From the NCBI GenBank assembly GCA_046536775.1, contig JAWDMD010000010.1, positions 1 to 17,735 on the forward strand: DNA of 17,735 nucleotides. The letters are read 5' to 3'. The position numbers and the translations under genes are program-made. The notes beneath the pieces are model-generated. The model saw nothing but the letters and a program-made list of their open reading frames with translations, made no database searches and had not been told where the DNA came from. Every line of letters starts with the position of its first letter. The first letter of the stretch is position 1. Origin of the DNA: Candidatus Nanopusillus sp. Lineage in GTDB: Archaea; Nanobdellota; Nanobdellia; Nanobdellales; Nanobdellaceae. Shown here piece by piece: positions 1,102-16,645 of the stretch.

Positions 1102-1449
1102 ATTATAGTACGTGCAAACAGTTTTGAATAATTTACCTAGCCTAGTTTAACAATTAAGCAAAAGTAATTCCAATGGATTAAGTGATATGTTTAGCAATAC
1201 TTGATTTCCTAATGTTATTGCTTAGCTTTCGTGTCTTTCATGTATGCTCTTAAGTCTGTTTTAATAATTATCTTCAATAATTGTTACAAGTATATTCATT
1301 AATCAATTATCTCTAACCAATAGATTTATATAAAGCATTATAATAATAAGAATTTATAAGCCCTTTGCATGAGCATTGAAAGCAATAGAATAATGGAACA
1401 TTATAAATATAATAAAACAAACTTCACTCCTCAATAATTATATAAAACA

Positions 1450-1462
1450 TTTAAATTTATAT
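1450..1462 (+). promoter_or_regulatory. candidate TATA box for the first glycosyltransferase gene
   Basis: TTTAAATTTATAT lies 36-48 nt upstream of the ATG at 1498. A G-run (AAGGGGGGT, 1481-1489) sits 8 nt upstream of the ATG as a possible ribosome-binding element. Called on position and composition only. Confidence 0.3.
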
Positions 1463-1497
1463 TATTAATACTGAGAAAATAAGGGGGGTATTTAAAA

Positions 1498-2583: not shown

Positions 2584-2624
2584 GGTTTATATAATGCTTT
2601 TTTAATTATTAAAATGGTGAAAGT

Positions 2625-3515
2625 TTGTGTAAATTAAACGATATAAATGTTATTATTCCTACATTAAATGAAGAAGATGGAATAGGCCCAACAATAGATG
2701 ATATTTTAAATTATGTTGAAAAAGATGACATTATAGTAGTTGATGGAAATAGCATTGATAATACAAGAAATGAAGTAGAAAAAAGAGGTGTTTTCGTATT
2801 TACGCAAAGCCAGAAAGGGAAGGCAAATGCCATAAAAGAGGCATTAATGCATGTAAAGAAAGATTATATTTTAATCATTGATGGCGATTATACTTACCCA
2901 GCTAAATATTTAATTGATATGCATAAATTAATCAAAAATGATGAATATGATGAAGTAATAGGTGTAAGAAATAGAAAAAACCAAAACATCATATATAGAT
3001 TCGGAAATTGGTTTTTAACAAAATTTTTTGATATATTATTTGGGGTTCATTTAAGAGATGTTTTAAGCGGCATGTATTTAGTAAAAAGAAAAGCTTTAGA
3101 AGGAGCTATTTTTGAGATGAAGGGATTTAGCGTTGAAAGTGAAATAGCAGCACATATGTCTTCTGTTGGAAATAAAATAGGAGAAGTTGATATTGAATAT
3201 AGAGAGAGAAAAGGAAGAAAAAAGTTAGGAATAAGACATGGATTATCAATAGCAATTGATATGGTAAGACTGTCTTGGCGTTATAATCCGGTGATGGTTT
3301 TCTTTTTAGTTGGATCATTATTAATGATTCCAGGAATAATATTAGGCATATACACAGTTATAGATTATGTGTATTTACACATAGATCATTTTGTTAAAGC
3401 CATAATTGCCTTGATTTTAACCGCAACAGGATTCCAAAGTTTGATGCTAGCTGTGTTAAGCACGTATTTAAGGAGAATGGAATACAGGATAAAGAATTAT
3501 TTAAAAGAAAAATGA
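2625..3515 (+). CDS. family-2 glycosyltransferase, polyprenyl/dolichyl-phosphate sugar synthase-like (DPM1/GtrB-type, GT-A domain plus 2 C-terminal TM helices)
   Basis: The 296-aa ORF reads INVIIPTLNEEDGIGPTIDDIL...IIVVDGNSIDNTRNEVEKRG...KGKANAIKEAL...YILIIDGDYTYP (DxD = DGD). Two C-terminal TM helices follow (VMVFFLVGSLLMIPGIILGIY; AIIALILTATGFQSLMLAVL). The TTG start at 2625 is preceded by GGTGA at 2616-2620 with a 4-nt spacer. Confidence 0.85.
   Translation: MCKLNDINVIIPTLNEEDGIGPTIDDILNYVEKDDIIVVDGNSIDNTRNEVEKRGVFVFTQSQKGKANAIKEALMHVKKDYILIIDGDYTYPAKYLIDMHKLIKNDEYDEVIGVRNRKNQNIIYRFGNWFLTKFFDILFGVHLRDVLSGMYLVKRKALEGAIFEMKGFSVESEIAAHMSSVGNKIGEVDIEYRERKGRKKLGIRHGLSIAIDMVRLSWRYNPVMVFFLVGSLLMIPGIILGIYTVIDYVYLHIDHFVKAIIALILTATGFQSLMLAVLSTYLRRMEYRIKNYLKEK
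3503..3512 (-). terminator. candidate oligo-T transcription terminator for the long minus-strand operon
   Basis: On the minus strand, 8-17 nt downstream of the TAG at 3522-3520, the sequence reads TTTTTCTTTT (T5-C-T4). Archaeal RNAP terminates at oligo-T tracts. The tract lies inside the last codons of the convergent GT2 gene. Confidence 0.3.
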
Positions 3516-3519
3516 TAAA

Positions 3520-5238
3520 CTATTTAAATTTATCAAATATATAATCTGTTGGTGTCATCAAAATTACGTTTGATTGAGAAGTTACCATATTTAGATTATT
3601 TAATAAATATGTAACATTTGGATTTATTGAATAGACACCATAGATAAAATATGATAAGGCATATTCATAATAACTAGGAGATGAATTTTCCGTTAAAATT
3701 GAACCATAGTCTACATAATAATAAAAATTAAAGTTTGGAGCAGTATAGTTAGTTATTCCAATTCCAATACCAGCTTCTCCAAACGGTTCACTATCAGGAA
3801 ATGCTACCGTAGAATAACCTGCAAATGTAGCAAATAAAGATAATACTGAGCCAACTATTATAAAAATGATTCCAAATCCTTTTATAATATTTTTAATTTT
3901 CTTTTTATTTAGGTTTTCTTTATCATAAAAAATAATAGACGAAAATGAAAATGCAAGCAATGGAAGTAAATCTTTTGGCAACCTATCAGCCCATCCAACT
4001 CCACCCATCCCGATTACTTGAAATGCTGCTATAGCTCCACTAAATATTAATAAAAGAAAGATTATCTTATATTCTATCTTTTTACTGTTAAAACTTAAAA
4101 TAAAAAGTGTAAAAAATGGGACTGTTAACAAATATATATAATCAATTTCCTTAATTCTAACTGCTAATGCATAAGATGGTAGAGCTCTTATTGATTCAGT
4201 TATTAAGCTACTTGAACTAGGCTTTCTTAGTAGAGCAAATAATGAATTGATGCCGCTAGATATACTAGATAATACATACGTGATATTGGACTGTAATAAA
4301 TTTCCTGATGCATATATTATTCTTAATAAATATGCAATAATAAAAGTTGATAACAAATAAAAAACATTAGACTTTGTTACTATCTTTTGAGGAAATATTA
4401 GTAAAATTAAAGAAATCCCTAGAACTCCAAAGGAAAGCCATAAAGATATGAGTTGATGATTAAACATAGCAAATAAAGACAAAATAAAAAATGTTAAATA
4501 ATCCTTTTTTTCTTGCGATTTTATTGCTTTAATGAAGAATCCAGATGCTAACGCGTATGGTAATAATGCATAATCATTTGAAACAACATAAGAGTATTCA
4601 GATGAAATTATTAAATAAACTATTAATGCTAAAGAAGATTTCCTATCATCAAATCCGTACAGTTTCATAGTTATATAAACTATTGGTATAGATAAAATTA
4701 TGAAAATTGTTGTATACCACTTTAATATGAAATAAAATGGCTGAGAAGTTATGCTATTAGTTTTACCAAATATTAATAATATTATTTCAGCTAATGTTAG
4801 CCAGAATCCCGGTTGAAGAGAAGAATAAGTATTTGGTTCTATATGCCCATAAGTTGTTATATAAGTTGACTGAAAATTATGGTTAAAAGAGTCCTCAAAA
4901 TCAGTCATATAATAATAATTAGAAAAGTCGGGCCAGAAATATCTGAGAAATATTATTAATGAAATAGAATAAATTATTATATAATAGTATTTTTTGTTTT
5001 CGTTTAATGCAAGTAAAGATGCAATAAATAATGTTGATTCCGATAATATTAAAAATATACCTGACATTGGCTCTCTTGATAGAGGGCCGTATATATCATA
5101 AACTCCGTAAACACCCTTTAACCCAGATTCAAACATATAATAAGCATATAATATACCAAATAATGTACCCAAAATAATAAAAAGGTATAGTAAGAATCCT
5201 TTTTTATTTAAATTCAATAACACCACCTGCAATTTCAT
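3520..5238 (-). CDS. large polytopic integral membrane protein (about 12-14 TM plus a Tyr/Asn-rich C-terminal ectodomain); possible GT-C-fold transferase or Wzy-like polymerase
   Basis: The 572-aa ORF is hydrophobic throughout and contains no cysteine. The C-terminal ~90 aa are non-hydrophobic with sequons (NYT, NVT, NSS). It is the last gene of the operon, directly after DUF58. The start is ambiguous: ATG 5238 has no SD, whereas TTG 5217 is preceded by AGGTGGTG (5221-5228). The function is inferred from architecture only. Confidence 0.7.
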   Translation of the reverse strand: MKLQVVLLNLNKKGFLLYLFIILGTLFGILYAYYMFESGLKGVYGVYDIYGPLSREPMSGIFLILSESTLFIASLLALNENKKYYYIIIYSISLIIFLRYFWPDFSNYYYMTDFEDSFNHNFQSTYITTYGHIEPNTYSSLQPGFWLTLAEIILLIFGKTNSITSQPFYFILKWYTTIFIILSIPIVYITMKLYGFDDRKSSLALIVYLIISSEYSYVVSNDYALLPYALASGFFIKAIKSQEKKDYLTFFILSLFAMFNHQLISLWLSFGVLGISLILLIFPQKIVTKSNVFYLLSTFIIAYLLRIIYASGNLLQSNITYVLSSISSGINSLFALLRKPSSSSLITESIRALPSYALAVRIKEIDYIYLLTVPFFTLFILSFNSKKIEYKIIFLLLIFSGAIAAFQVIGMGGVGWADRLPKDLLPLLAFSFSSIIFYDKENLNKKKIKNIIKGFGIIFIIVGSVLSLFATFAGYSTVAFPDSEPFGEAGIGIGITNYTAPNFNFYYYVDYGSILTENSSPSYYEYALSYFIYGVYSINPNVTYLLNNLNMVTSQSNVILMTPTDYIFDKFK

Positions 5239-6361
5239 TGAAAGAACTAAAAACTTTTGACCCTAATTCTTTGATTTTGTTCAAGTTTTTTTCATACATT
5301 TTCCTTATATTGTAAGATGTTTCTATATCATCTATGTAAACCCAAGGTTTAGTGGGTTGAATTATATAAGCTTTTGGATATTTAAAGGCTAGTTCGCTTA
5401 AAATTTGAGTTAGAATAATATACCTGTCTTCTTTGCTATTTGTATTAAAATTATCTTTCTTTTTATTTTTCAAATAATCATAGATATCTTTAAAATCTAA
5501 TACTCTATTTATTTCTGGATAATACTTTTTCATCATATCAACTATGTATATGAAAGCGGAATAAACATCTTTTCTAAGATTTTTAATATTTTGGCCATCG
5601 TAAACATAAATATTTCCCTGGAACAAGTTTGAATACTTAATCAAATTTAATGCTTCTGTTGCTAGATCATCAGCTGAATTTTCATCGGTAGATTCTAAAT
5701 CTATTATAATTCCTATATTACCGTAAAGATCCCAATAGTATCTCTTAACCATTATGTCATTATATTTTGCTGTTTTTTTCCAATCTATTCTCCTAAAATC
5801 ATCATTATTACTAAATTTATCAGTATATGCAAATTCTTCTCCTCTACCTATTATATTTGATTGTGATGTAAATCCTTTGGAAAAATAAGTTTGCAATTCT
5901 TTAAATAGTAAAAAAGACTTGGGATATACTGTTAATCTTATTTTAGGCCTTATTAACACTTCTATCTTTTTCTCGAATAAAATAGACCTATATAATACAT
6001 GAAGTTTATTAATTTCATAGATACCAGATCTTAGACCCCTTATTTTTAAATTTATTCTAAATTTATTAAAATCACTTTTTGTATTAATTATTAAACTAAC
6101 AAAATTGTATGGAGAAATAATTTTAATTTTTTTATTATAGCTATAATATAGTGGAATTTCTACTTCTTCACCCCTAAATAACTCAACATTGTTTATGGGC
6201 GATTCAAAATAAAATCTTGGTTTCATGAAAAATAAAAAAGTATAGTCTATTAATATAAACAAAAGAAATGCTAAAGAAACGTATATAAAATCATAAATTT
6301 TAAATGCGACTCCAGTTCCTAATACAATTAAGGAAAAAAATAAAAATAATTCATATCTCAA
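5204..6361 (-). CDS. DUF58-family protein (MoxR partner), N-terminally membrane-anchored
   Basis: The 385-aa ORF has two N-terminal TM helices. It carries the DUF58 hallmark GRGEEFAYTDKFSNNDDFRRIDWKKTAKYNDIMVKRYYWD (codons at 5729-5848), compared with the recalled consensus G.G.eF...R.Y.pGD..R.IDWkatAr...l.vre. The TTG start at 6361 overlaps the MoxR stop (TTGA), with AGGTG at 6370-6374. Confidence 0.8.
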   Translation of the reverse strand: MRYELFLFFSLIVLGTGVAFKIYDFIYVSLAFLLFILIDYTFLFFMKPRFYFESPINNVELFRGEEVEIPLYYSYNKKIKIISPYNFVSLIINTKSDFNKFRINLKIRGLRSGIYEINKLHVLYRSILFEKKIEVLIRPKIRLTVYPKSFLLFKELQTYFSKGFTSQSNIIGRGEEFAYTDKFSNNDDFRRIDWKKTAKYNDIMVKRYYWDLYGNIGIIIDLESTDENSADDLATEALNLIKYSNLFQGNIYVYDGQNIKNLRKDVYSAFIYIVDMMKKYYPEINRVLDFKDIYDYLKNKKKDNFNTNSKEDRYIILTQILSELAFKYPKAYIIQPTKPWVYIDDIETSYNIRKMYEKNLNKIKELGSKVFSSFNEIAGGVIEFK

Positions 6362-7278
6362 ATTTTAGGCACCTTTATCTTTTTCAATACTATTTCTATT
6401 AAGGAATCTGCATTTAATTCTTGGCTAAATATTCTATGCCTTAATACAGGAAATGCAGCTTTTTTCACATCATCTGGAATAACAAAGTCTCTTCCATTAA
6501 GATAAGCAATTGCTCTAGAAATTTTATAAAACCAAATAGAAGATCTAACGCTTATCGCATCGTTTATATCATTTTTCCTTAGTTCATTTAGGATATCTAG
6601 CATATAGTTTGCTACATTATCATTAACTTTAACACTTTTAACCTCTTCTCTCATAATTCTTAAATCTTCAATTGAAACTATTTTTTCTACTATAGGTTTA
6701 TCAATACTATCAATTTTTCTTAGTATTTCCAATTCTTTGTCTCTATCTGGCATTTTAATAATGATTTTTGATGAAAATCTATCTAATTCAGTAATGGTTA
6801 AAGGAAATATACCTCCAGTATCGTTAGGCACTTCAGTGGCTATTATAAAAAATGGATCTGGAAGCGATAGAGTGTTAATATCAATTGTTACCTGTTTTTC
6901 TTGCATTGCTTCTAATAATGCAGATTGGGTTCTAGGAGGTGCCCTATTAATTTCATCTATTAGTATTATGTTGCTAAATATTGGTCCTTTTCTTATTCTG
7001 AACTCTTTTTTTTCCAGATCCCAAACTAATGTGCCTAATATATCTGATGGTAATAAATCTGAAGTCATCTGAATTCTTTTAAAATCAACTCCAATAGCTT
7101 GAGAAAATAACTTGGCTAGTGTTGTTTTACCTAATCCTTGCGTTCCTTCAAGAATAACATGGCCTTCTGATATAAGATTAGCCAATAGAATTTCTATAGA
7201 ATCCTCACCACCTATATAATACTTAGATATTTCATTTACTATTTTTTCTTTAATATTTAAAGCCTTATTTGGATTCAT
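6358..7278 (-). CDS. moxR: MoxR-type AAA+ ATPase (AAA_3 family)
   Basis: The 306-aa ORF has Walker A ILEGTQGLGKTT (7120-7146), the MoxR-typical FKRIQMTSDLLPSDILG, Walker B IILIDEINRAPPRTQSALLEAMQEKQVT, the Arg-finger region ELDRF, and the sensor-2/lid region SVRSSIWFYKISRAIAYLNGRDFVIPDDVKKAAFPVLRHRI. Confidence 0.92.
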   Translation of the reverse strand: MNPNKALNIKEKIVNEISKYYIGGEDSIEILLANLISEGHVILEGTQGLGKTTLAKLFSQAIGVDFKRIQMTSDLLPSDILGTLVWDLEKKEFRIRKGPIFSNIILIDEINRAPPRTQSALLEAMQEKQVTIDINTLSLPDPFFIIATEVPNDTGGIFPLTITELDRFSSKIIIKMPDRDKELEILRKIDSIDKPIVEKIVSIEDLRIMREEVKSVKVNDNVANYMLDILNELRKNDINDAISVRSSIWFYKISRAIAYLNGRDFVIPDDVKKAAFPVLRHRIFSQELNADSLIEIVLKKIKVPKI

Positions 7279-8185
7279 TATTTTTCTCCTCTAAAATTTC
7301 ATTTATAAGATTCTTATCCCAATCGGGGTGTTCTTTCATTATTTTATTTATATTATAGGAATTATTAACTTTTGCCTCTTCTTTTAAGCTATAAACAAAA
7401 ATTGAAGCAATGAAAAATGTCGATAATAAAATTATTTGCATGTAAAGTTGAGAAATAAATTTTGATAAATTATTAATTTGTATTTTTAAAAAAAGATATG
7501 GTGTTTCGTTTTGAAGAAAAGTTGCAATATAATATTTTTCTCCATTTGTTAAGTTAAAGAAGAATTTTTGGTTATTTCCTAAATTAAATACATAATTTAA
7601 TATAAAATAAGGGTCTGATATAACAATTATTTTACCCTTGTTTATGTATTCTTCAGAAGAAACAGTAAATGGTCCATATATTAAATTTGATCCATTTTTT
7701 ATGTAACTGAAAAAAGAAGTATTAGCTATTGGAGTGCCGTTGTTTAAATACGATGTATAAAATAAAACTAATTTCTCCTTATTGTTAGTTAATGCTAAAG
7801 GGAAAATATTTGACTTATAATTAAATATATCATCATAAACAATTTCATTATTTGTAATAATATTTCCCCCAAGTAATTTAATTAACCCATTAACTAAATT
7901 TCCATCACCAAATATAATAATTTCATTCCCATTTTTTAAAAAGTTATTAAGATTTTGTATATCCTTATTTGTAGGCATTTTCTCTGGATTTACTATTACT
8001 AATACTCCATTAAAATTAAGCATCGAGCTTGAAGTTATCAGTCCAGAAGAATTTTTATACAATGAAGAAATACCATTCCATCCATTATTAAATGGTGAAA
8101 AGGGTTGAGTATTTGGAAAATAAGAAATTAAAATCAACATAACAAAAATAAACGTAATTAACCCTATATTAATTTTTGAGATCAT
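7265..8185 (-). CDS. DUF4350-like bitopic ectoprotein (N- and C-terminal TM anchors, glycosylated middle)
   Basis: The 306-aa ORF begins with an N-terminal TM helix. It then reads NNGWNGISSLYKN...FNGVLVIVNPEKMPTNKDIQNLNNFLKNGNEIIIFGDGN and later GKIIVISDPYFILNYVFNLGNNQKFFFNL. This matches my recollection of DUF4350 (G..al..ll...tlvv..P...e...L..fv..GG.lvl ... vvvl.D...l.N..l...gNa.f.lnl). It has at least 7 sequons and a C-terminal TM helix. The ATGA overlap with the upstream gene is at 8182-8185, and GGGTGAT lies at 8191-8197. Confidence 0.6.
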   Translation of the reverse strand: MISKINIGLITFIFVMLILISYFPNTQPFSPFNNGWNGISSLYKNSSGLITSSSMLNFNGVLVIVNPEKMPTNKDIQNLNNFLKNGNEIIIFGDGNLVNGLIKLLGGNIITNNEIVYDDIFNYKSNIFPLALTNNKEKLVLFYTSYLNNGTPIANTSFFSYIKNGSNLIYGPFTVSSEEYINKGKIIVISDPYFILNYVFNLGNNQKFFFNLTNGEKYYIATFLQNETPYLFLKIQINNLSKFISQLYMQIILLSTFFIASIFVYSLKEEAKVNNSYNINKIMKEHPDWDKNLINEILEEKNNESK

Positions 8186-10020
8186 TTAAAATCACCCAAT
8201 AAAAGAGTAATTAATTCATCGAATTCATTATAATTTAACCCAAAACCATAAATTTCCCTTTCAAGTAAACTTAATAATCTCGATATTTTTTCTTTAGAAA
8301 TAATTTTGGTATTTAAAATTTTAAAATACTCTCTAAGAGTCATTGAATCTTCCAAAATTAACCCGTAATTAAAGTAAATATTGCTGACAAATTTTGAAAA
8401 TGCATCACTTAATATTTTCTTTCTAGTTGATAATATCTCAGGGGTTTTGTTATTCTTCTCTACCTCATTACTTATATTCTTACTTTCCTTTTTTCTTTCT
8501 TTATCATAAATATACTTCAGAGAAGATAATAAAATTGCAGTCCCTAAAACCAATGCTATTGGATTTATAATAAAAACCTCTCTGCTTTCTGAAATTTGAG
8601 AAAAATAACTTTCATTGGGGATTAATAGTAATGTAACGTTTATATGGGAATTCATATATGTTGGAGGAATAGTAATTTTAGCTTGAAATTCCCCTTTTGA
8701 ATTAGTTTTTGTAATAATATTATTTCCTAAATAGCTTATTTTTATCACTGAATTATTTAAATAAGTATTATTAAAATAAGCCACGCCCTTTATTGTTATT
8801 GTTTCTCCAGAAAGTGCTGTTTTAGCCATAGTAAAGTTAATTTTTGGTATAAGTCTGTAAACGTTAATATTAGTTACAAACTGTGCTTTATTGTATATCC
8901 TATTTGACGGTAAAATAAATATTAAGGTATAATTGCCATTAGGTATATCTGGTATTAACAAATTTGTTGAAAAATTATTATTACTTATATTTATCACTTT
9001 TATTAAATTAATTTGTCTAATGTAAATTATTATAGATTTATTAATATAAGGACTTATGTTGAGCAATATCCCATATATTTTTAAATATGTATTGGGTAAA
9101 ATCTTAGTCTTATTTATATGAATTTCAATTTTAGGATTAATAAACAGATTTTTTATGCATATAATTGAAGAATTTTCATGCAAATAATTATATAATTTGT
9201 TAGGTATAAATATTGCATAAATGCAAGTTTTATTATCATAGATATAAGGTATTTTGTAATTATATGAAAATTGTCCATAAGAATTTGTTGTTACATTTAT
9301 TGAATAATCTGGAAAAATCAATTCTACAGTTGCATTACTTATATAGTTATGTAAATATGTTACATTACCATAAATTCTTGTTACATTACCAACCCATGCT
9401 TCAGTTACGTTTGAATATAAATTAACAGTTACATTACCTTTATACGAATTAATTTTTTCCATTAGTTGGTTTATTTGATATGTTAAATTACCTTCAGAAA
9501 TTTCAATTTCATTTAGTCCTTTTTGTAAATAATTGTAAGGGCCTATGCTATTATATATTTCAGAATAAAGATCAGATAACCATATAGTAGAGTAATTTGC
9601 ATTTTCAATTGATTTAAAAGCTTTTTTAGATAAATTATATGCGTAGGATACATTACCTATATTTAAGTAATAATAGCCTAAACTTATGTTTTCCTTTGTT
9701 TCGTTTAATTGATTTATAATTAAATCAAGAAATATATTAACCCTATTAATTAAATTTTCTATGTTTTGATTTATTAATACAGAATTATTAATGCTTTTTA
9801 GAATTAATTTTGAATAAGAATAATTTTGCAAATAAGCCTCATGCATAACTTTATAGTAAGCTAGTGAGAACAATATATTTTGTTGACTAACATGAACATT
9901 AATGTTAAATAAGTTTTTATAATTATAAAAATAAATAGCTGGTAAAGCGATGCTTATACCTATAATAAATAGTAAAAACAGTGAAATTAAAACATTATAT
10001 TTTTGGTAAGTTGAAACCAA
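8182..10020 (-). CDS. large glycosylated bitopic surface protein: helical N-domain, three beta-sandwich-like repeats, TM helix, cytoplasmic DUF4129-like tail
   Basis: The 612-aa ORF has TM1 at about aa 10-32 and TM2 at about aa 487-505. I count 27 N-x-S/T sequons between the two TM helices. Three ~90-aa repeats each contain a ...N(S/N)xG(Q/E)F...IP... core (TNSYGQFSYNYKIP; ISNNNFSTNLLIPDIPNGNYTL; TNSKGEFQAKITIP) and end in NPKI/IPKI/IINP. The C-terminal MTLREYFKIL...ISRLLSLLEREIYGFG resembles the DUF4129 consensus (TPREY....L..L..lYE.aRYG). The TTG start at 10020 has GAGGTG at 10031-10036. Confidence 0.65.
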   Translation of the reverse strand: MVSTYQKYNVLISLFLLFIIGISIALPAIYFYNYKNLFNINVHVSQQNILFSLAYYKVMHEAYLQNYSYSKLILKSINNSVLINQNIENLINRVNIFLDLIINQLNETKENISLGYYYLNIGNVSYAYNLSKKAFKSIENANYSTIWLSDLYSEIYNSIGPYNYLQKGLNEIEISEGNLTYQINQLMEKINSYKGNVTVNLYSNVTEAWVGNVTRIYGNVTYLHNYISNATVELIFPDYSINVTTNSYGQFSYNYKIPYIYDNKTCIYAIFIPNKLYNYLHENSSIICIKNLFINPKIEIHINKTKILPNTYLKIYGILLNISPYINKSIIIYIRQINLIKVINISNNNFSTNLLIPDIPNGNYTLIFILPSNRIYNKAQFVTNINVYRLIPKINFTMAKTALSGETITIKGVAYFNNTYLNNSVIKISYLGNNIITKTNSKGEFQAKITIPPTYMNSHINVTLLLIPNESYFSQISESREVFIINPIALVLGTAILLSSLKYIYDKERKKESKNISNEVEKNNKTPEILSTRKKILSDAFSKFVSNIYFNYGLILEDSMTLREYFKILNTKIISKEKISRLLSLLEREIYGFGLNYNEFDELITLLLGDFK

Positions 10021-10273
10021 TTGAATTTAACACCTCAAGTGCAGCTATAAACAAAAATAATAAAAGTAAGGTGAAGCCTAACAAAGTTATTTTAATTTTT
10101 GATGTTAATACTCTATATGATAAAAAATAAGAAATTGCATATAATCCTAAATATGGACCTAAAACTTCTATATTTAAAAGTGTTAATGATATGAAACCTA
10201 GTGAAATTAAAATTGATAGAATTATAACAAATTTCTTTTGTTTATTCAATTTTAATAACCTCCGCTCTAACAA
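9995..10273 (-). CDS. small 3-TM membrane protein (84-92 aa), unknown function
   Basis: The ORF is hydrophobic throughout. The track start TTG 10273 lacks an SD, whereas TTG 10249 is preceded by GGAGGT (10258-10263, 8-nt spacer) and gives MNKQKKFVIILSIL.... It overlaps both neighbours. Confidence 0.55.
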   Translation of the reverse strand: MLERRLLKLNKQKKFVIILSILISLGFISLTLLNIEVLGPYLGLYAISYFLSYRVLTSKIKITLLGFTLLLLFLFIAALEVLNSIGFNLPKI

Positions 10274-10931
10274 TGATTCCTTGATCCGACTTTATCTCTT
10301 CTATTAATCTTACTGGTTTTCTATAATAGGTGGAGAGAGCACTTAAAGTTATACTTGTTTCTAAAGACCCTAGACATTTATAATATCTAGGAATGTTTAA
10401 ATAACGTCCTTTAGGTTCATTTATATTAACTGTTATTAAATTATTTTCCTTTAATATTTTTACATTGCTAGCCAAATTTAAATCATCAACAATTATGCTG
10501 TTTATCCATGATTCATCACTTACTTTATAATTATATTCAACCTTATGAAAAGGAGGGAAAATAATTATGCCTAAATCATTTGAAACCCTTAGAGGTATCT
10601 TCTTTATATAATCAACTAAATAATAATAATTTTCATCTTCCTTATATGGAATAAATGCTATATTTCTATCATCTTTTTCCGTGTATATAGCCTTACCTAA
10701 AGTATTATATTCTTCCAATAATGCTTCTATATTTAATACAGATGATTCTATCATTTTTCTTAAAGTATATGGTAATATATTGTTATCATCGATACTAAAA
10801 GATGATAGACCAATAACTAATATACCTAATGATACGTAAAACATTTCCATATAGTTTAGGATAAATATGGAAAAGACTGATAATGGAATAGATATAATTA
10901 TTAATATTAATCCAAGTTCTTTAACTTTCAT
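10242..10931 (-). CDS. membrane-anchored protein of unknown function (2 N-terminal TM helices plus a ~170-aa soluble domain)
   Basis: The 229-aa ORF has an ATG start and contains no family motif that I recognise. The soluble part has almost no sequons, which suggests it faces the cytoplasm. It sits in an operonic position and overlaps both neighbours. Confidence 0.6.
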   Translation of the reverse strand: MKVKELGLILIIISIPLSVFSIFILNYMEMFYVSLGILVIGLSSFSIDDNNILPYTLRKMIESSVLNIEALLEEYNTLGKAIYTEKDDRNIAFIPYKEDENYYYLVDYIKKIPLRVSNDLGIIIFPPFHKVEYNYKVSDESWINSIIVDDLNLASNVKILKENNLITVNINEPKGRYLNIPRYYKCLGSLETSITLSALSTYYRKPVRLIEEIKSDQGIIVRAEVIKIE

Positions 10932-11508
10932 TTTTTATTACCCATCTAATTTTTTCATATTGGTATTTTCTATACTTAGCTATAAACAATACTGCAAGCG
11001 TAAAAATATAAATTGATATAGAAACACTATATACATTTAGACCTATTGGTAGTAAATTTAAAATTAAACCCAATAGTGGTAAAATAGCTAAACTCATGCC
11101 TATTGATAATGCACCTCTTTCCAGTTCGCTCCATTCTTCTTTTTTAGGATAGATGCTTTCAATAATTCCATAACCAGGATAAAAAAACAACAAAGGTGAA
11201 ACAACTATGCCTTTTATTAATATATATTTATTGCTCATTAAGATCGATGAAATTAATGATAGAGTTATTACTATAATAGAAAACAAATACCAAGAATTTT
11301 CTATAGAAAAGAAATAAGAGATAAAGCTCCTTTTTTTATTTTCCACTAGCTTAATTTTATTCTCTTGTATTAAATAATAAATTTGTCTTGAGAATTCAAC
11401 TTTATTAATTTTTCCATGTTTTTCTTCTAAATACTTTAATATTTCTTTTATCCTTGTTTTTTCCAAATTTTTGTTCAAATAATTCAAAATATCTTCTTCA
11501 AAAGACAA
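10921..11508 (-). CDS. wHTH-like N-terminal domain fused to a DUF1616-like membrane core
   Basis: The 195-aa ORF has residues 1-57 (MSFEEDILNYLNKNLEKTRIKEILKYLEEKHGKINKVEFSRQIYYLIQENKIKLVE) that look like a small winged-helix domain. Residues ~100-180 read LLFFYPGYGIIESIYPKKEEWSELERGALSIGMSLAILPLLGLILNLLPIGLNVY. This matches my recollection of the DUF1616 membrane signature (lF.PGYal..alfP.k..l..iER.alS.glSla..pl.gl.LN..p.Gi). The TTG start at 11508 has GGTGG at 11516-11520. Confidence 0.6.
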   Translation of the reverse strand: MSFEEDILNYLNKNLEKTRIKEILKYLEEKHGKINKVEFSRQIYYLIQENKIKLVENKKRSFISYFFSIENSWYLFSIIVITLSLISSILMSNKYILIKGIVVSPLLFFYPGYGIIESIYPKKEEWSELERGALSIGMSLAILPLLGLILNLLPIGLNVYSVSISIYIFTLAVLFIAKYRKYQYEKIRWVIKNES

Positions 11509-11510
11509 TT

Positions 11511-11984
11511 TTATGCCACCGTAGAGTTTATATATAATTGATTATATAATCCAGTAAAAACAAAATTTGTACCATTAAACATATATAGCAAAATAACTAT
11601 TTTATAATCTCCTTGTTTGTTAAAAGTTACATTAAAAGGAATAGTATCATTTTGGTTATTGTTTATTAGATCGTAAAATACATAATAAGGTTTCCAATTA
11701 GGATAATGCGTTGAATTGACTATAAAAGAAGAATTAACTATATAAATCTTTATTTGGTATAATGCTATTTTGTTTTCATGGTTTTCTATATATACGTACA
11801 GACTTGTTGAAGAATTAACTGGAACTTGGCTTGGATATCCGCCAAGCTCTTTATTATCGTTTAGTAAAGCTAATAAACTATATGGACCAGGTTTCCAATA
11901 ACTCATGGCAAAATTTATTGAAATTATTACAGCTATAATAATAAAAAATCCTGTAGTGAAATTCCTTATCTTTTTGTCAATCAT
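11511..11984 (-). CDS. N-terminally anchored ectoprotein resembling the extracellular (C-terminal) part of DUF1616 proteins
   Basis: The 157-aa ORF has one N-terminal TM helix. It then reads YSLLALLNDNKELGGYPSQVPVNSSTSLYVYIENHENKIALYQIKIYIVN, which resembles the recalled DUF1616 segment (.eFYiL.....a..YP..l..ge...l.vgI.NhE.....Y.l.v). It has several sequons. The ATG at 11984 has a strong SD, GAGGTGA, at 11991-11997. Confidence 0.5.
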   Translation of the reverse strand: MIDKKIRNFTTGFFIIIAVIISINFAMSYWKPGPYSLLALLNDNKELGGYPSQVPVNSSTSLYVYIENHENKIALYQIKIYIVNSSFIVNSTHYPNWKPYYVFYDLINNNQNDTIPFNVTFNKQGDYKIVILLYMFNGTNFVFTGLYNQLYINSTVA

Positions 11985-12423
11985 TTTTCTTCACCTCATA
12001 GTTTTCATGAGTTTTAAGCCATAACCACCAATAGATTGAAGTTAAGTATTTATATGATAAATATGAAAAAACTAAAAATACAATAATGATAAAAATATTC
12101 TCTATTAATTTTATGTAATATTGCGTCTCTGCTTCATTTAAGATCTTCTGTCCATTTAATGATATATTTTTAGATATAATGTAGGAGTTCATACAAGAAG
12201 TTTCATTATTATAATTTATGCCTGTATTTAAATAATTGATAGATTCCTTAAGATTAATTATATAGTCAGAACTATAGCCAAGTGATGAGGCTTTTGCTAA
12301 ATAGTTATATGAGTTTTCAACTTCTATTAAACTTTGATTGCAAGTAATTGTTAATGCATTTGCCTTAATTGATACGAATAATATAAGAAATATAGGTATT
12401 ATTTGAAGTATTTTTTTGTTCAT
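11977..12423 (-). CDS. small secreted, C-terminally anchored protein (signal peptide, helical Asn/Tyr-rich domain with 2 Cys, C-terminal TM helix)
   Basis: The 148-aa ORF starts MNKKILQIIPIFLILFVSIKANA, which is signal-peptide-like. Its only two cysteines (C28, C77) lie in the ectodomain, and it has sequons NQS, NET, NIS. The C-terminal TM helix is IFIIIVFLVFSYLSY. It is the first gene after the 100-bp gap. Confidence 0.6.
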   Translation of the reverse strand: MNKKILQIIPIFLILFVSIKANALTITCNQSLIEVENSYNYLAKASSLGYSSDYIINLKESINYLNTGINYNNETSCMNSYIISKNISLNGQKILNEAETQYYIKLIENIFIIIVFLVFSYLSYKYLTSIYWWLWLKTHENYEVKKND

Positions 12424-12523
12424 GCATACCCCCTTTTAGTATTTTTTCCTTTATATTATAAATTTTTAGATTTATAAATAACGCAATACCGAAATTTTAT
12501 TTGTACATTTTATTAAATAAATT
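12424..12523 (-). promoter_or_regulatory. only sizeable intergenic gap inside the minus-strand block; candidate internal promoter
   Basis: The palindromic TATA-like ATTTATAAAT lies at 12470-12479, 47-56 nt upstream of the ATG at 12423. A second TATA-like TTTATAATATAAA (minus-strand reading) lies at 12450-12462. GGGGGT (complement of 12429-12434) lies 5 nt upstream of the ATG. There is no strong oligo-T tract after the upstream stop, so read-through is also possible. Confidence 0.35.
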
Positions 12524-13174
12524 TTATTTAGTTATTACAGTTCCATCTTTTATATAATATAATTTATCTGGTAAATCCTCTATTAAATAAGGAGATGAAA
12601 AAATAATAATTTTATTTTCTTCTTTAAATTTTCTAATTAATTTTCTGATTATTTCTTCTCCTGTTTCATCTTGACTGGAAAATGGCTCATCCAAGACTAA
12701 TAATTTTGGATCCTTAATTATGGAAGAGGCTATGCACACCCTTTGTCTTTCTCCCCCACTTAATTTGTCTATATCCTCATATTCTAAGCCTTCAAGTCCG
12801 AAATCTTTAATTAGTTTAATTGCTTTATTAAATGCTATTTTTTTGTCAACTTTCTTAAGGATTAACGGTAACATAATGCTTTCTATAACGTTGTTACCTT
12901 TTATTAGCCTGTAATCTTGCTCAACATATCCTATATAGTTTAATCTAATCTTTGCTAGTTTTGAATCATTAAATGAACTTATATCGATGTTGTTAAATAT
13001 TATTTTTCCTCTAGTTGCTTTCTCTATTAATGAAATAATTTTCAGAAGAGTTGATTTTCCAGATCCATTCTTTCCATATATTTCTATTAAGCTACCTTCT
13101 TCTAGCTTTAAGTTAATATTTTTTAACACGATTTTTCCGTTTCTTTCATAAAAAACATTTTCTAAAACCATCAT
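12524..13174 (-). CDS. ABC transporter ATP-binding protein (MacB/LolD-like NBD) with a non-canonical H-loop
   Basis: The 216-aa ORF has Walker A GKNGSGKST (13049-13075), a Q-loop (VEQD), the ABC signature LSGGERQR and Walker B LLVLDEP. The D-loop reads SSQD. The expected switch-His position reads IIIFSSPY (12587-12601) and has no His. GGTGA at 13181-13185 lies 6 nt upstream of the ATGATG start. Confidence 0.93.
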   Translation of the reverse strand: MMVLENVFYERNGKIVLKNINLKLEEGSLIEIYGKNGSGKSTLLKIISLIEKATRGKIIFNNIDISSFNDSKLAKIRLNYIGYVEQDYRLIKGNNVIESIMLPLILKKVDKKIAFNKAIKLIKDFGLEGLEYEDIDKLSGGERQRVCIASSIIKDPKLLVLDEPFSSQDETGEEIIRKLIRKFKEENKIIIFSSPYLIEDLPDKLYYIKDGTVITK

Positions 13175-13180
13175 ATAATT

Positions 13181-14719
13181 TCACCCATAATAAAAAACAC
13201 TTAGATAAGGGGAAGATAAAACGAGATTATTATAAGATAGGGGTAGGCTTTTCAAGTTAATAATTCCGTCCTGCAAATAATAACCCAAATAATAATTGCC
13301 CTTATATAATAACAACAAACCGTTCAAGTTTCCCAATAACGGTTGATTTACATTTATATTAGCTAAATTTGAAAAGAAATAGCTAACTTTAATATCTCCA
13401 TACATAGTTAGGTTTAATCCATTCAATTTATATGCTGTTATTGCACTATTAACAAATCCAAATGAATACCTCCAATTAGATGATAAAAACCAATGAAGTT
13501 GATAAATGAGGTTTGTTGATAATATAGTTATTGTTAACCCCCCGGTTAACAATGATATTAATGATATTAAAGCTGTAAATTTCTTTATTTTTTTGTTAAA
13601 TCCTGATATTAATCCTATAGTTATTCCTCCCCAAAAAATTAAATAATTAGTAAGACGTATTGTTACAATTTGAAGTATAGGATTTGAAAAAATTGTATAT
13701 AAAATAGAGGTAATGGTTAATATAAATAATGAGCTAGGGATTAAATGATTTTTAGTTTTTGAGAATTCAAGCTTAAAGCCGGAAGGAACGAGAAATACAA
13801 GGGGGATGCCTAAAATAATTATTTGCCAATAGTATTCCTTATCATAAAATAAGGAAATATTTTGGAAACTAGACAACAGCAAAAGAATTATTCCTAATAA
13901 TATGGTTAGCATATAAGTAAATTTATTTAAGTTTCTATTTTTCGGAGAAAAAATAACATATGTAAAAGTAATAAAAAATAAATAAATAAAAAACGTAAAA
14001 TTAAAGGAATTTAGATAATATCCTTTAATAGCATTTATACCGTATGTATAGTAATAAATTAAATATGACATTAATGTAAAAATACCCGTTATAATAAGAT
14101 ATTTATCGTTTTTGTAATCATAATTAATATGTGATACATAATTTACCCCTCTTTTTATTATGGGGATTAATAATGTTATTCCAATTATTAGAACTGTTGG
14201 TAAAGGATGGGTTAAAATTAACGATGGTATAGAAATTATAATTGGTATAAGGTCTTTTATTTTATTTGAAAAATAAGATAAAAACAAAATTAGGAAAAAT
14301 ATTGGATAAGCGTAAACCTCTTTTAATAGTGATGAGGTAAAAATTAAAAATGACCCTATAAAAAATGAGAAGGCAATAGATATAATTCCATTTCCTCCTA
14401 ATTTTTCTACTAATATATAAAATAATAGCATAGTTTCAGGTATTATTAAAAATGAAAATAAAGAGAAAATGTAATAAGGTGAAATCCCAGTTGAAATAGA
14501 TACTATTTGAGAAAATAGTAAAACGCCTGGAATTCTATTATTATAACCCCCTAATGCTGTGTTGTTCCATATTTTTACGTTATTAATTAACAAATTCCCT
14601 TCATGAATTAATGGCCATACATCGGTTGATAATGGTTCTCTTAAAAAAATAAATGGGATTAACCTTAAAGCTATTGCCATTGATATAATGAGAATTATTA
14701 ACATTGATTTTTTATTCAT
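13181..14719 (-). CDS. large polytopic integral membrane protein (about 12-13 TM plus a ~100-aa C-terminal ectodomain); possible GT-C-fold transferase or polymerase
   Basis: The track gives GTG 14728. I prefer ATG 14719 (MNKKSMLIILII...) because it forms an ATGA overlap with the upstream stop (14716-14718) and is preceded by AGGTGGT (14724-14730). The first extracytoplasmic loop after TM1 carries PLSTDVWPLIHEG, an acidic residue placed as in GT-C first loops. The protein has no WWDYG motif and no cysteine. Confidence 0.7.
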   Translation of the reverse strand: MNKKSMLIILIISMAIALRLIPFIFLREPLSTDVWPLIHEGNLLINNVKIWNNTALGGYNNRIPGVLLFSQIVSISTGISPYYIFSLFSFLIIPETMLLFYILVEKLGGNGIISIAFSFFIGSFLIFTSSLLKEVYAYPIFFLILFLSYFSNKIKDLIPIIISIPSLILTHPLPTVLIIGITLLIPIIKRGVNYVSHINYDYKNDKYLIITGIFTLMSYLIYYYTYGINAIKGYYLNSFNFTFFIYLFFITFTYVIFSPKNRNLNKFTYMLTILLGIILLLLSSFQNISLFYDKEYYWQIIILGIPLVFLVPSGFKLEFSKTKNHLIPSSLFILTITSILYTIFSNPILQIVTIRLTNYLIFWGGITIGLISGFNKKIKKFTALISLISLLTGGLTITILSTNLIYQLHWFLSSNWRYSFGFVNSAITAYKLNGLNLTMYGDIKVSYFFSNLANINVNQPLLGNLNGLLLLYKGNYYLGYYLQDGIINLKSLPLSYNNLVLSSPYLSVFYYG

Positions 14720-15786
14720 AGGGACCACCTTATATTTATAAAAGTACTTATTGAAGATATAATAAATATTGAGAGAGTAGAGATTACTATTTCTTCATTA
14801 ATTTGTGGTATTAAATATAAACCCAAGATATTTACAATTACAAATTTACTAAAACAATAATATAATAATATTGAAATAGGAATTGATGCAATAAAAGATA
14901 AAAGATTGATAATTATCGAAATTACTGCCAAATTAACCTTTGAGATTCCATAAAAATGTAGCAACTCTAAGTTATCTTTTTCAGTTAAAACCAGCACTTC
15001 CCCATTTATATAAGAGCCTATTGATAGAATTATTATAGAGGCTATAGCTAGAGATGTAAAAGCAATCTTTGGGATTCCTAACTTGTTATAATAAACTTCT
15101 GATATTTGATTTAGTTCTTGTTGTAATTTTTGATTATTTAAATTTTCTACTATTAATGTAGCCTTTTCTAATAAGCTGGTTTCTTCGCTTGGCATTTGTA
15201 ATGCCTTCATAACATTTATTTTATATGAATTGTTAACTAAATTTATTATAGCGATTGAAGCTAAATTATTATTAATTCCATTTCCATGGATTTGATACGC
15301 TATATTATTACTAACCTCTATTCCAAAAGATAAATTTTTTTCAAAACCACATATAATCAATTCTATAGGTAAATTAGAAAATGCAGGATAAACTATAAGC
15401 GTTTGATTAATTTTTAGATTCATCATTTTTTTAACAGTAATGCTTGGATACGCACAATAATTATTATAATCTTTATATCCTATGAATGCAATGTCTTTAC
15501 CATTTACATTTCCTAAAGATAATATAATAAATTGAATATTTTTTATTCCAGAAACATTATTAAGTTTAGTCAATAAATTTTCCTTGTTTATTAATGAAGT
15601 AAAAGGAGATAATGAATAACTAGTTATAATAATTCCATTATTTCCTAAAGAATTAATTTCGTTGTAAATATTATAGAGTCCAATAACCTCTGATGATATA
15701 ATAAGAGAAGAGGTTTCTATAGCAACAAAAATTAATACTAATAAAATTATAGTATATTTTCTAAATCCTTTAAATGCTCTAATCAT
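14716..15786 (-). CDS. FtsX/MacB-like ABC permease, long ectodomain (~205 aa)
   Basis: The 356-aa ORF has a basic N-terminus plus TM1 (FKGFRKYTIILLVLIFVAI) and a sequon-bearing ectodomain at about aa 35-240. Three C-terminal TM helices follow, with the FtsX-type intracellular motif LTEKDNLELLHFYGISKVNLAVI (compare the recalled ER.rEiGiLkAlGa....I). AGGTG lies at 15794-15798. Confidence 0.7.
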   Translation of the reverse strand: MIRAFKGFRKYTIILLVLIFVAIETSSLIISSEVIGLYNIYNEINSLGNNGIIITSYSLSPFTSLINKENLLTKLNNVSGIKNIQFIILSLGNVNGKDIAFIGYKDYNNYCAYPSITVKKMMNLKINQTLIVYPAFSNLPIELIICGFEKNLSFGIEVSNNIAYQIHGNGINNNLASIAIINLVNNSYKINVMKALQMPSEETSLLEKATLIVENLNNQKLQQELNQISEVYYNKLGIPKIAFTSLAIASIIILSIGSYINGEVLVLTEKDNLELLHFYGISKVNLAVISIIINLLSFIASIPISILLYYCFSKFVIVNILGLYLIPQINEEIVISTLSIFIISSISTFINIRWSL

Positions 15787-16645
15787 GATTTAGCACCTGA
15801 AAGTAAGAAGATATTGTTGAAACAACTATTGAATACAAAGATACAATTATCAATGAATAAAGACCTGGGGTATTAATAATAAAATTAGCATAGTTTAAAT
15901 GATATAAAACGGATATTCCTAATTGAAAAATTATTATACCAAAAGCAAGTCCGTATAAAGTAAATAGTGTAGAAATTATCAATGATACAATTAAATAATT
16001 TAATTTTATTATATTATGAGAGATACCAATATATTTTAAGTTATTGAAAGCATCGGATAAACTTAAGTAGATTTTTTTATATGAAAAGTATTGAGCTGGA
16101 AATGATAAAGTAATTAATATAAACGATAATATAATTGATAAATATCGTAAAGAAGACAGCATAGATGACATGATATTTTTTAGCCCTCCACCAACTGTTA
16201 TGCGGGTAGATTGATTATAGCTAGGCAATATTACTAAATTTAAATTATTGGGAGTATTTATTATACCTGTTACTTGATAAGAATTACATGAGCCTGAAGA
16301 ACATAATATTATCTTACTGTTTTTAGATATATTTAAGGAATTACTCACTAAAACACCTTCCTTCCCATATAATAAATTAATATTAAAATAATTTAAGATA
16401 TATGATTCGTTATTGCTAGACAATATATTTACTTGAATTGATTTGTTATCATTCTTTAATGTAGCTAATGATATATTAATAGTTATAAAATTACTTGTTG
16501 AATTAATTTCAATTGTATTTATTGAATTTGGTATAGAAAGCAGTGAACCAGATAATGCCAATGGTATAGATATAGATAATAAAAGTAATATAAATGATTT
16601 TTTATAAAGCAGTGATTTTAATGTTTGTTTAATTATGGTTGTCAT
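15779..16645 (-). CDS. FtsX/MacB-like ABC permease, short ectodomain (~125 aa)
   Basis: The 288-aa ORF starts IKQTLKSLLYKKSFILLLLSISIPLAL, which is typical of FtsX-family N-termini. The ectodomain contains GVLVSNSLNISKNSKIIL...YQVTGIIN and a CSSGSC pair. Three C-terminal TM helices follow, with LKYIGISHNIIKLNYLIVSLI. The ATG at 16645 has a strong SD, AGGTGAT, at 16651-16657 (5-nt spacer). Confidence 0.65.
   Translation of the reverse strand: MTTIIKQTLKSLLYKKSFILLLLSISIPLALSGSLLSIPNSINTIEINSTSNFITINISLATLKNDNKSIQVNILSSNNESYILNYFNINLLYGKEGVLVSNSLNISKNSKIILCSSGSCNSYQVTGIINTPNNLNLVILPSYNQSTRITVGGGLKNIMSSMLSSLRYLSIILSFILITLSFPAQYFSYKKIYLSLSDAFNNLKYIGISHNIIKLNYLIVSLIISTLFTLYGLAFGIIIFQLGISVLYHLNYANFIINTPGLYSLIIVSLYSIVVSTISSYFQVLNHD

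Follow-up and report, generated by a model that had tools for sequence, protein, structure and literature searches.

The subject of this report is a cluster of 14 genes, G1 to G14, on the minus strand of a 17,735-nucleotide (nt) stretch of archaeal DNA (contig JAWDMD010000010.1, positions 1 to 17,735; the whole stretch is called the window throughout). We propose that the cluster is made up of two archaeal envelope modules, each conserved, and that these usually cooperate on a glycosylated surface structure, a reading to which we give about an even chance. Module A (G1-G4) would be a LolCDE-like, type VII ATP-binding cassette (ABC) transporter, with a nucleotide-binding subunit that lacks the H-loop histidine and with G3, a membrane protein resembling GT-C-fold glycosyltransferases, always in the operon. 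Module B (G5-G13) would be the archaeal 'arCOG01314 putative secretion system', to which a GT-C paralogue, G14, is appended in Caldisphaera. What is new here is the attachment of an ABC and GT-C quartet to a predicted arCOG01314-type system, the predicted GT-C identity of G3 and G14, and a nucleotide-binding subunit without the H-loop histidine.

A listing of open reading frames (ORFs) gives exactly 14 between positions 16645 and 3520, all on the minus strand. From G1 to G14 the junctions measure -8, -13, +6, +100, -8, +2, -11, -32, -26, -4, -14, -4 and -35 nt, which means that 12 of the 13 are overlaps or gaps of 6 nt or less, and the sole real gap, of 100 nt, separates G4 from G5 (12424-12523). 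ATGA stop-start overlaps are present at 14716-14719 and 8182-8185, and a TTGA overlap at 6358-6361. An earlier note on this DNA had described 14 tightly coupled minus-strand genes with this gap and these overlaps, and the re-check of ORFs and junctions agrees with it. So does a crude hydropathy scan, which found transmembrane (TM)-like segments in 12 of the 14 products and none in G4 and G12, the two NTPases that had been named as the only soluble products. Shine-Dalgarno (SD)-like GGTG or GAGG motifs occur within 20 nt upstream of the start in 12 genes, G1 and G5 included; no such motif precedes G9 or G14 as called, which suggests that the true starts of these two genes may differ from the called ones. 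The genes and the gap, with product lengths in amino acids (aa), are as follows.

15779..16645, minus strand: G1, 288 aa, FtsX-type (type VII ABC) permease subunit 1, with TM1, an extracytoplasmic domain and TM2-4.
14716..15786, minus strand: G2, 356 aa, second FtsX-type permease subunit, its extracytoplasmic domain MacB_PCD-like, from profiles and homologues.
13181..14728, minus strand: G3, 515 aa, GT-C-fold membrane glycosyltransferase-like protein, its gene lying between the permease genes and the gene of the nucleotide-binding subunit.
12524..13174, minus strand: G4, 216 aa, ABC nucleotide-binding subunit, LolD/FtsE/MacB-like (PF00005, 1.5e-31).
12424..12523, minus strand: intergenic gap of 100 nt between G4 and G5, with a TATA-like box, TTTATAAA, and an SD-like GGGGGT before G5.
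11977..12423, minus strand: G5, 148 aa, short bitopic protein, TM segments at both termini, helical ectodomain, from hydropathy.
11511..11984, minus strand: G6, 157 aa, TM anchor and immunoglobulin (Ig)-like ectodomain, the C-terminal part of DUF1616 (PF07760, 1.2e-8).
10921..11508, minus strand: G7, 195 aa, polytopic N-terminal part of DUF1616 (PF07760, 5.4e-21).
10242..10931, minus strand: G8, 229 aa, a pair of TM segments at the N-terminus and an alpha/beta domain, related to DUF7982 through its most distant homologue.
9995..10273, minus strand: G9, 84-92 aa, small protein with 2-3 TM segments, from hydropathy, kept upstream of G10 in 25 loci.
8182..10020, minus strand: G10, 612 aa, N-terminal TM segment, helical region, external Ig-like/CarboxypepD_reg repeats, second TM segment and DUF4129-like tail.
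7265..8185, minus strand: G11, 306 aa, two TM segments flanking a DUF4350/GldG-like ectodomain, and a predicted cytoplasmic tail (PF14258, 2.4e-7).
6358..7278, minus strand: G12, 306 aa, soluble MoxR-type AAA+ ATPase (PF07726 AAA_3, 1e-51; AAA_lid_2, 6.6e-15).
5204..6361, minus strand: G13, 385 aa, probable DUF58 (vWA-like) protein, TM hairpin at the N-terminus (PF01882, borderline).
3520..5238, minus strand: G14, 572 aa, polytopic, remote paralogue of G3 (hhalign).

All 14 genes are found, with their order kept, in Caldisphaera lagunensis DSM 15908 (locus L008; phmmer E 6e-25 to 6e-203), and the identical cluster is carried by at least six metagenome contigs from hot springs. We therefore conclude that the gene arrangement is not due to chance. 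The gap at 12424-12523 may hold an internal promoter. Its TATA-like box was discounted as promoter evidence because the DNA is only 25% GC, and a scan for sigma-70 promoters was set aside because the host is archaeal.

The two proteins of roughly 500 aa that had been taken for polytopic orphans turned out to resemble GT-C glycosyltransferases, G3 by structure prediction and G14 by profile comparison. An AlphaFold2 model of G3 (predicted local distance difference test score, pLDDT, 90.8; predicted template-modelling score 0.91) was compared with the PDB using Foldseek, and the top 22 matches were all GT-C proteins (STT3, PglB, ALG12, ALG9, ArnT, DPY19 and AftA; best E 1.6e-5, template-modelling scores of ~0.5-0.56). 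Neither G3 nor G14 itself matches a Pfam or NCBIfam family; Pfam PMT_2 is matched by three of 60 members of the G3 family, and the homologue from Desulfurococcus is labelled 'RgtA/B/C/D-like' in UniRef. The family comprises 147 clusters at 50% identity, and residues D36, P67, K136, E137 and R358 are invariant in it. D36, invariant in 73 sequences, lies seven residues past the helix formed by residues 6-29, in the predicted first extracytoplasmic loop after TM1. The probable start of G3 is the ATG at 14719, which gives a protein of 512 aa. The modelled fold supports the view that G3 is a GT-C-fold glycosyltransferase-like protein.

BLASTP of G3 against G14 gave nothing significant, and a G14 profile (alignment A10) had no match among PDB sequences. 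When the same profile was aligned with the G3 family by hhalign, a relationship was detected at a probability of 90% (E 1.6e-6) over 176 columns that include the conserved D/KE/H region. Since G14 is by this comparison a remote paralogue of G3, it is likely to be GT-C-like, and it is probably a second enzyme of this kind. A homologue of G14 is located near the corresponding gene cluster of Saccharolobus islandicus. The GT-C identity of the two proteins sharpens the glycan hypothesis that had been put forward for the cluster. A 561-aa gene between G4 and the MoxR gene at locus L037 was also considered as a relative of G3 and G14, and no relationship could be detected. In a metagenome variant (L002, 11522-13240), an in-frame stop breaks G14 into ORFs of 65 and 462 aa, so that G14 would be a pseudogene in that strain unless the stop is a sequencing error.

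The reading of G1, G2 and G4 as a MacB/FtsX-type ABC transporter, also made earlier, is borne out by family profiles, homologues with MacB_PCD and the PF00005 match of G4. Taken alone, the window's G1 and G2 have no Pfam match, and G1 has none in NCBIfam either; BLASTP of one against the other gave nothing significant, their relationship showing up with profile methods only, and shallow profiles of five to six sequences were not significant against the PDB (E 0.9-3). A G1 family profile of 34 sequences (A7) matched YbbP (3.5e-17), LolE (6e-8) and LolF in the PDB, and a G2 family profile of 36 sequences (A6) matched LolC (2.5e-8) as well as LolE, YbbP, BceB and YtrF. The matches span the TM2-4 region, and the hydropathy pattern is consistent with the FtsX type. 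The G1 orthologue of C. lagunensis matches Pfam FtsX (E 0.0015), and G2 homologues P0020-22 (E ~1e-17) bear PF12704 MacB_PCD. At positions 76-181 of the query, the A6 profile aligns with the periplasmic region of LolC/LolE; for the periplasmic core domain of G1, the only alignment is to residues 570-741 of YbbP. G1 and G2 would thus probably form a heterodimer in the manner of LolC and LolE.

The best NCBIfam matches of G4 are L_ocin_972_ABC, LolD and FtsE. It keeps Walker A, the Q-loop, the signature and Walker B, and has P195 in place of histidine at the H-loop position. Tested against the canonical set of motifs, G4 thus fails on the H-loop histidine alone and is still an ABC nucleotide-binding subunit by PF00005. 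The substitution is a property of the whole family: among the nucleotide-binding subunits of the quartets examined at loci from L013 to L095, the position is occupied by threonine in 40, proline in three and histidine in none, whereas nine unrelated ABC nucleotide-binding subunits from the same loci all have histidine. Like LolCDE, MacB and FtsEX, module A has one gene for a nucleotide-binding subunit and distinct FtsX-type permeases, two here, in which TM1 and TM2 are separated by a large extracytoplasmic domain. It differs from them in the archaeal host, which has no outer membrane or Lol pathway, in the GT-C gene between the permeases and the nucleotide-binding subunit, and in the missing histidine.

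Module B is not new. A 'putative secretion system' defined by arCOG01314 (arCOG01314/arCOG02884) was predicted by Makarova et al. in 2015 (PMC5898192), and its parts, as given in the description there, are DUF4350, MoxR, a vWA protein, DUF1616/COG4743, Ig-like 'S-layer-like' proteins and small proteins with 2-5 TM segments. In 2019 it was still counted as uncharacterised dark matter (PMC6393860). Judged by their domains, G5-G13 match this system: a DUF4350 protein that is a membrane-anchored, flavodoxin/GldG-like protein, MoxR, DUF1616 with an Ig-like ectodomain, further Ig-like proteins and small TM proteins are common to both, a vWA/DUF58 protein is probably so as well, and the gene order of Sulfolobales is kept. 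The published description, as far as it goes, has neither an ABC transporter nor a GT-C protein, whereas a LolCDE-like ABC and GT-C quartet is attached here, and DUF1616 is represented here by two genes in reversed order. The statement in the earlier note that no characterised system joins MoxR, DUF58 and DUF4350 to DUF1616 holds for characterised systems, but the combination had already been predicted. Our literature searches found no report in which an archaeal FtsX/MacB-type transporter is connected with a GT-C enzyme, or the arCOG01314 system with an ABC transporter.

Direct Pfam or NCBIfam matches within the cluster are limited to G4, G6, G7, G11, G12 and G13, the other eight products having none. 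The MoxR, DUF4350 and DUF1616-like assignments made earlier are borne out by Pfam matches, those of DUF4350 and DUF1616 being above cut-off. G7 matches positions 4-120 of the DUF1616 profile (75.5 bits) and G6 positions 162-286 (35.0 bits), the cut-off being 31.6 bits in both cases. The DUF1616 protein is thus split and 'permuted', with the gene for the C-terminal part of the profile, G6, upstream of that for the N-terminal part, G7; in several other lineages a single DUF1616 ORF of ~330 aa stands directly before G1. The N-terminus of G7 gives weak, sub-threshold winged-helix matches (MCM4_WHD, 0.006), and a cytoplasmic winged-helix-like segment is possible there. G5, for which no Pfam match was found, is kept beside G6 and G7 in Sulfolobales and in many of the loci surveyed below. 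G8 has five homologues in a large database, the most distant of which carries PF25939 DUF7982; its alpha/beta domain is probably cytoplasmic.

In G11, PF14258 scores 31.6 bits against a cut-off of 30.4, and PF09822 ABC_transp_aux is matched as well (2.3e-7); TM segments are formed by residues 1-27 and 244-269, and the HPDWD motif after the last of them is invariant in all 12 aligned homologues (alignment A1). The gene of the MoxR protein, G12, overlaps G11 by 14 nt. Two of the earlier domain calls stand in part. DUF58 is matched by 11 of the 13 members of the G13 family at E <=0.01 (best 4e-10), the window protein among them, but the latter reaches 23.1 bits (4.7e-5), just under the cut-off of 23.4. 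DUF4129 was not matched directly by the G10 of the window; it was matched over its full length (PF13559, 1-69/69) by three G10 homologues (L013, L015 and one more) with E-values between 1.3e-4 and 4e-3, none of which reaches the cut-off of 24.8 bits. The tail of G10 aligns with these matches, T561, R563, E564, E587 and Y591 are invariant, and the T-x-R-E...E...Y motif of the DUF4129-like tail, encoded within 8182-8400, is found in all 11 homologues. CarboxypepD_reg is matched by G10 homologues at 4e-11 at best. The HPDWD motif of G11 and the tail motif of G10 are plausible candidates for docking sites, or handles, for DUF58 and MoxR.

NxS/T sequons number 29 in G10, where 10.9 are expected, and eight in G6, where 2.4 are expected (shuffle P < 0.0005 for each), and there are none in G8, G9 and G13. 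This pattern fits a topology in which the ectodomains of G10, G6 and G11 would lie outside and the bodies of G8 and G13 inside. A DUF1616 representative of Haloferax volcanii, HVO_2173, is an N-glycoprotein (PMC8241124). The thread pilus cluster (Saci_0404-0409) was considered as a source of the identity of the Ig-like pieces and dropped; by its description, it has no MoxR, DUF58 or ABC protein, and the literature gives no link of it to MoxR or ABC (PMC9715654).

These sequon-rich, Ig-like proteins bear on an explanation that we consider unlikely, namely that the cluster serves protein secretion or the assembly of surface proteins: the ABC transporter would energise export or release of Ig-like proteins (G6, G10 or S-layer-type cargo), and the GT-C and glycan genes would merely decorate the cargo. 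It is the original prediction for the arCOG01314 system, as described in PMC5898192, and it draws further support from the two TM anchors of G10 and from the best matches of G1 and G2 to LolC and LolE, LolCDE-type transporters being known to extract membrane-anchored proteins. However, no conserved gene for a free cargo could be identified, there is no evidence for a channel, and the GT-C gene, far from being an accessory, invariably lies inside the ABC operon.

Several bacterial systems share parts with the cluster. Like GldA-GldF-GldG of gliding Bacteroidota, it encodes a GldG-like auxiliary ectodomain protein together with an ABC transporter (DUF4350 is akin to GldG, an ABC transporter auxiliary protein; PMC5898192), but GldF is an ABC-2-type and not an FtsX-type protein, and MoxR/DUF58, DUF1616 and GT-C are absent from that system. 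Bacterial MoxR-DUF58 operons (Bat of Bacteroides; actinobacterial MoxR-DUF58-DUF4129/DUF4350) share with it MoxR, a DUF58-like protein and membrane partners of the DUF4350/DUF4129 type, but here BatA-E are lacking, there is no transglutaminase core on the DUF4129-like tail, and the DUF1616 and DUF7982-like partners are specific to archaea. A module for envelope stress, quality control or regulation, which like the Bat-type operons would sense or repair damage to the membrane or surface and would not be biosynthetic, seems to us improbable. The pair of MoxR and DUF58, common to Bat and to mycobacterial MoxR operons, would be expected of such a module, a nucleotide-binding subunit without the H-loop histidine could be a switch and not a motor, and the possible winged-helix N-terminus of G7 would suit a regulator; in H. 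volcanii, moreover, HVO_2173 is encoded in hvo_2160-hvo_2176, whose proteins vary in abundance with rod or disk cell shape (PMC10869688). Against it, no vWA or TPR Pfam match was found in any of the 14 products, as would be expected of BatA-E-type proteins, the surroundings are consistently rich in glycosyltransferases across lineages, and the GT-C family has invariant residues of the catalytic type.

Whether the two modules belong together was addressed by a survey anchored on the G3 family, which is hence unbiased toward MoxR; 79 metagenome loci (given L numbers) were mapped with iterated hidden Markov models. G1-G2-G3-G4 were found on one strand in 31 of the 33 loci with room for them, and we conclude that they are a near-invariant quartet and one unit. 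At a clustering of G3 at >=70% identity, 15 of 40 lineages have a G8-G13 gene, and 20 any G5-G13 gene, on the same piece of contig. At >=50% identity the corresponding numbers are 11 and 13 of 21 lineages, and among the five of these with >=6 kb on both sides of G3 they are four and five.

The arrangement varies. In L037, L027 and L086 the quartet stands inside a co-directional array of 15 genes, with G5-G7 on one side of it and MoxR...DUF58 on the other; it is placed after DUF58 in L019, L039 and L044, and is divergent in L013-L017, L042 and L062, while DUF1616 stands directly upstream of G1 in L046, L054, L059, L071, L083 and L091. With distant G2 homologues (26% identity), the quartet is divergent from a rearranged cluster that reads MoxR / 230 aa / 83 aa / DUF4129 protein / DUF4350 / DUF58-like / DUF1616. 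In Sulfolobales, which lack the ABC genes, a G3-family gene is located directly upstream of G5; the protein from S. islandicus (L012, 4587-6020) is a full-length homologue of G3 (hhalign 99.8%, E 1e-29). A neighbourhood that is kept despite rearrangement is a classic signature of functional coupling. Because the modules are co-localised in many lineages in spite of differing orders and orientations, we conclude that they are probably functionally coupled.

Against this reading stand a number of observations. The quartet occurs by itself, among housekeeping genes, in Desulfurococcus amylolyticus, and by itself in L052, L069 and L085, where ~8-10 kb is available on each side of G3. The G5-G13 block, in the same order, has no ABC gene within 10 kb in S. 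islandicus, Sulfolobaceae RB850M and a crenarchaeal metagenome-assembled genome (MAG; 'Crenarchaeota'). In C. lagunensis a GT2 gene on the opposite strand lies exactly in the gap between G4 and G5, and G5-G14 therefore need a promoter of their own there, which makes two transcription units. The survey covers G3 relatives that share one sequence pattern, on fragments of contigs. In the alignment with the single S. islandicus sequence, which makes the residue assignments uncertain, isoleucine stands at D36 and asparagine at E137; in the lineage without the ABC transporter, the role of the G3 family may thus also be non-catalytic, or that of a divergent GT-C enzyme. The lack of the H-loop histidine may make ATP hydrolysis by G4 weak, slow or regulated. 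For G8, the AlphaFold2 model from five sequences has a pLDDT of 74, and Foldseek against the PDB gave nothing at E <=0.001, the best match being BcsD at 0.024. Our literature searches (DUF1616, DUF4350/DUF4129, arCOG and Sulfolobus MoxR) returned no functional study of the system. From the MoxR side, a scan of genome contigs with a DUF4350 alignment gave three loci only, and that direction rests on few genomes.

The separations just listed, and the occurrence of G5-G13 without the ABC genes at locus L011, would be expected if two independent systems simply shared a glycan or envelope island, the ABC transporter and GT-C proteins handling a lipid-linked glycan of their own and MoxR, DUF58, DUF4350 and DUF1616 forming a separate system. 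We regard this as rather doubtful, if less so than the secretion and stress explanations. It agrees with the position of the window's sole real gap, which falls between the halves, and with the absence of an ABC transporter from the arCOG01314 components in the description by Makarova et al. But with one MoxR gene or a few in each genome, chance would bring the modules together in far fewer than 11 of 21 distant lineages, the genes are interleaved in L027, L037 and L086, where the ABC genes stand between DUF1616 and MoxR, DUF1616 genes abut G1 in many lineages, and the MoxR cluster of Sulfolobales includes a G3-family gene. From these neighbourhoods, we conclude that the cluster comprises two separable modules with a recurrent functional association, the link between them being facultative and not that of an obligate single operon. 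The single system of the earlier note is upheld to the extent that the halves adjoin in those 11 lineages, but not as an indivisible whole, since they are found apart in Sulfolobales, Desulfurococcus and C. lagunensis.

The genes that flank the cluster place it in a glycan context. They are as follows.

2625..3515, plus strand: GT2 of the ArnC/DPMS-like polyprenyl-phosphate-sugar synthase type, convergent on G14 (PDB ArnC, 3.9e-7 over the full length; Pyrococcus DPMS, 1.6e-6).
1498..2583, plus strand: membrane GT2 (closest PDB entry 6yv7, E 1e-75).
17097..17735, plus strand: first part of a gene for a flippase of the Wzx/Polysacc_synt type, divergent from G1 (L004 copy of this gene: PF01943/PF13440).
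Low-coordinate end of the window: Methyltransf_21 gene.

A glycan island with two GT2s, a Wzx-like flippase and an FkbM-like methyltransferase had been noted before, and gene content and PDB matches agree with this. Enzymes of the ArnC/DPMS type supply GT-C enzymes with polyprenyl-phosphate sugars, and the GT2 at 2625-3515 is a candidate maker of the donor for the GT-C proteins of the cluster; in L011 a GT2 of equal size comes after DUF58. The combination recalls ArnC/ArnT, GtrA/GtrB/Gtr-type and DPMS/PMT pairs in that an ArnC/DPMS-like GT2 adjoins GT-C-fold proteins. It differs from them in that neither G3 nor G14 falls into a curated GT-C family, and in that these two putative enzymes are shorter than STT3/AglB and are encoded within operons that contain ATPase genes. 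The GT2 at 1498-2583 is a 56%-identical orthologue of the C. lagunensis GT2 (L008, 7324-8403), and the position of this 6yv7-like gene differs: in C. lagunensis it occupies the G4-G5 gap, on the opposite strand, and in the window it lies beyond G14. Around L011 there are GlmS, GT1, GT2, carbamoyltransferase and PMT_2-like genes, and around L008 and L012 (C. lagunensis and S. islandicus) dTDP-rhamnose genes.

A hydrophobic, membrane-protein-like ORF of 99 aa at 687-986 (plus strand) may be what is left of a gene; the corresponding flank of variant contig L003 has a GT2 gene of 355 aa, and the flank is strain-variable. An imperfect inverted repeat of 27 nt with a 4-nt spacer and 78% complementarity is located at 16930-16987, in the divergent intergenic region of ~450 bp between G1 and the flippase gene, and could be an operator or a chance occurrence in AT-rich DNA. 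Repeats in the window resemble chance AT-rich matches, and no Rfam families or tRNAs were found in it.

NCBI lists the contig under 'Candidatus Nanopusillus sp.' (RXN79_*). A Caldisphaera sp. MAG (L009, WP_410713447) has the same proteins and DNA, and the GC content at the cluster is ~25% in the window and 25.7% in C. lagunensis. Because of the identity with the Caldisphaera MAG, the synteny with C. lagunensis and the match in local GC, we consider the label a likely artefact: the true carrier is most likely Caldisphaera (Acidilobales), and the Nanopusillus label probably reflects a binning error rather than gene transfer between host and symbiont.

If the modules cooperate on a glycosylated surface structure, as we propose, the cluster could work as follows. 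Outside the cell would be the N-glycosylated Ig-repeat protein G10, the GldG-like DUF4350 protein G11 and the Ig-like DUF1616 protein G6; in the membrane, the DUF1616 protein G7 and the small TM proteins G5 and G9; and inside, the DUF58/vWA-like G13 and the MoxR AAA+ ATPase G12, whose targets would probably be two cytoplasmic tails, the DUF4129-like one of G10 and the one of G11 that bears HPDWD. The flanking ArnC/DPMS-like GT2 would make a dolichol-phosphate sugar that reaches the outer leaflet, and G3 and G14 would pass the sugar to an acceptor at the outer face of the membrane. The ABC transporter would use ATP for mechanotransmission to the ectodomains, with no passage of substrate across the membrane, and a membrane-bound product would be released or handed over. 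MoxR and DUF58 would then assemble or reset the scaffold of G10, G11 and DUF1616 that takes the product. It is in this sense that we infer the 'dual-ATPase machine' function suggested in the earlier note.

A more specific form of the proposal is offered tentatively, as possible. The quartet would represent an unrecognised class of archaeal envelope machine, in which a LolCDE-like ABC transporter without the H-loop histidine is obligately paired with a GT-C protein, powers external glycosylation or the hand-over of a polymer, and docks on a DUF4350/DUF1616/DUF4129 scaffold controlled by MoxR and DUF58. This would give the arCOG01314 system its first concrete function, the building of the crenarchaeal glycocalyx or of a glycoconjugate associated with the S-layer.

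To our knowledge, the ways in which Crenarchaeota build and maintain a glycosylated surface beyond AglB-type N-glycosylation are largely obscure. Tractable hosts exist in Sulfolobus/Saccharolobus, which carry the block from the G3-like gene to DUF58, and C. lagunensis and Desulfurococcus have been cultured. A type VII ABC transporter that has a GT-C protein as its fixed partner, and a nucleotide-binding subunit that never has the switch histidine, would, if true, be a new case for studies of ABC mechanism. The arCOG01314/DUF1616 system is, as described in PMC5898192 and PMC6393860, among the widely conserved archaeal membrane gene sets without a function. This dark-matter system would gain three testable parts: an invariant ABC and GT-C quartet, a second GT-C-like protein, and a GT2 of the polyprenyl-phosphate-sugar type.

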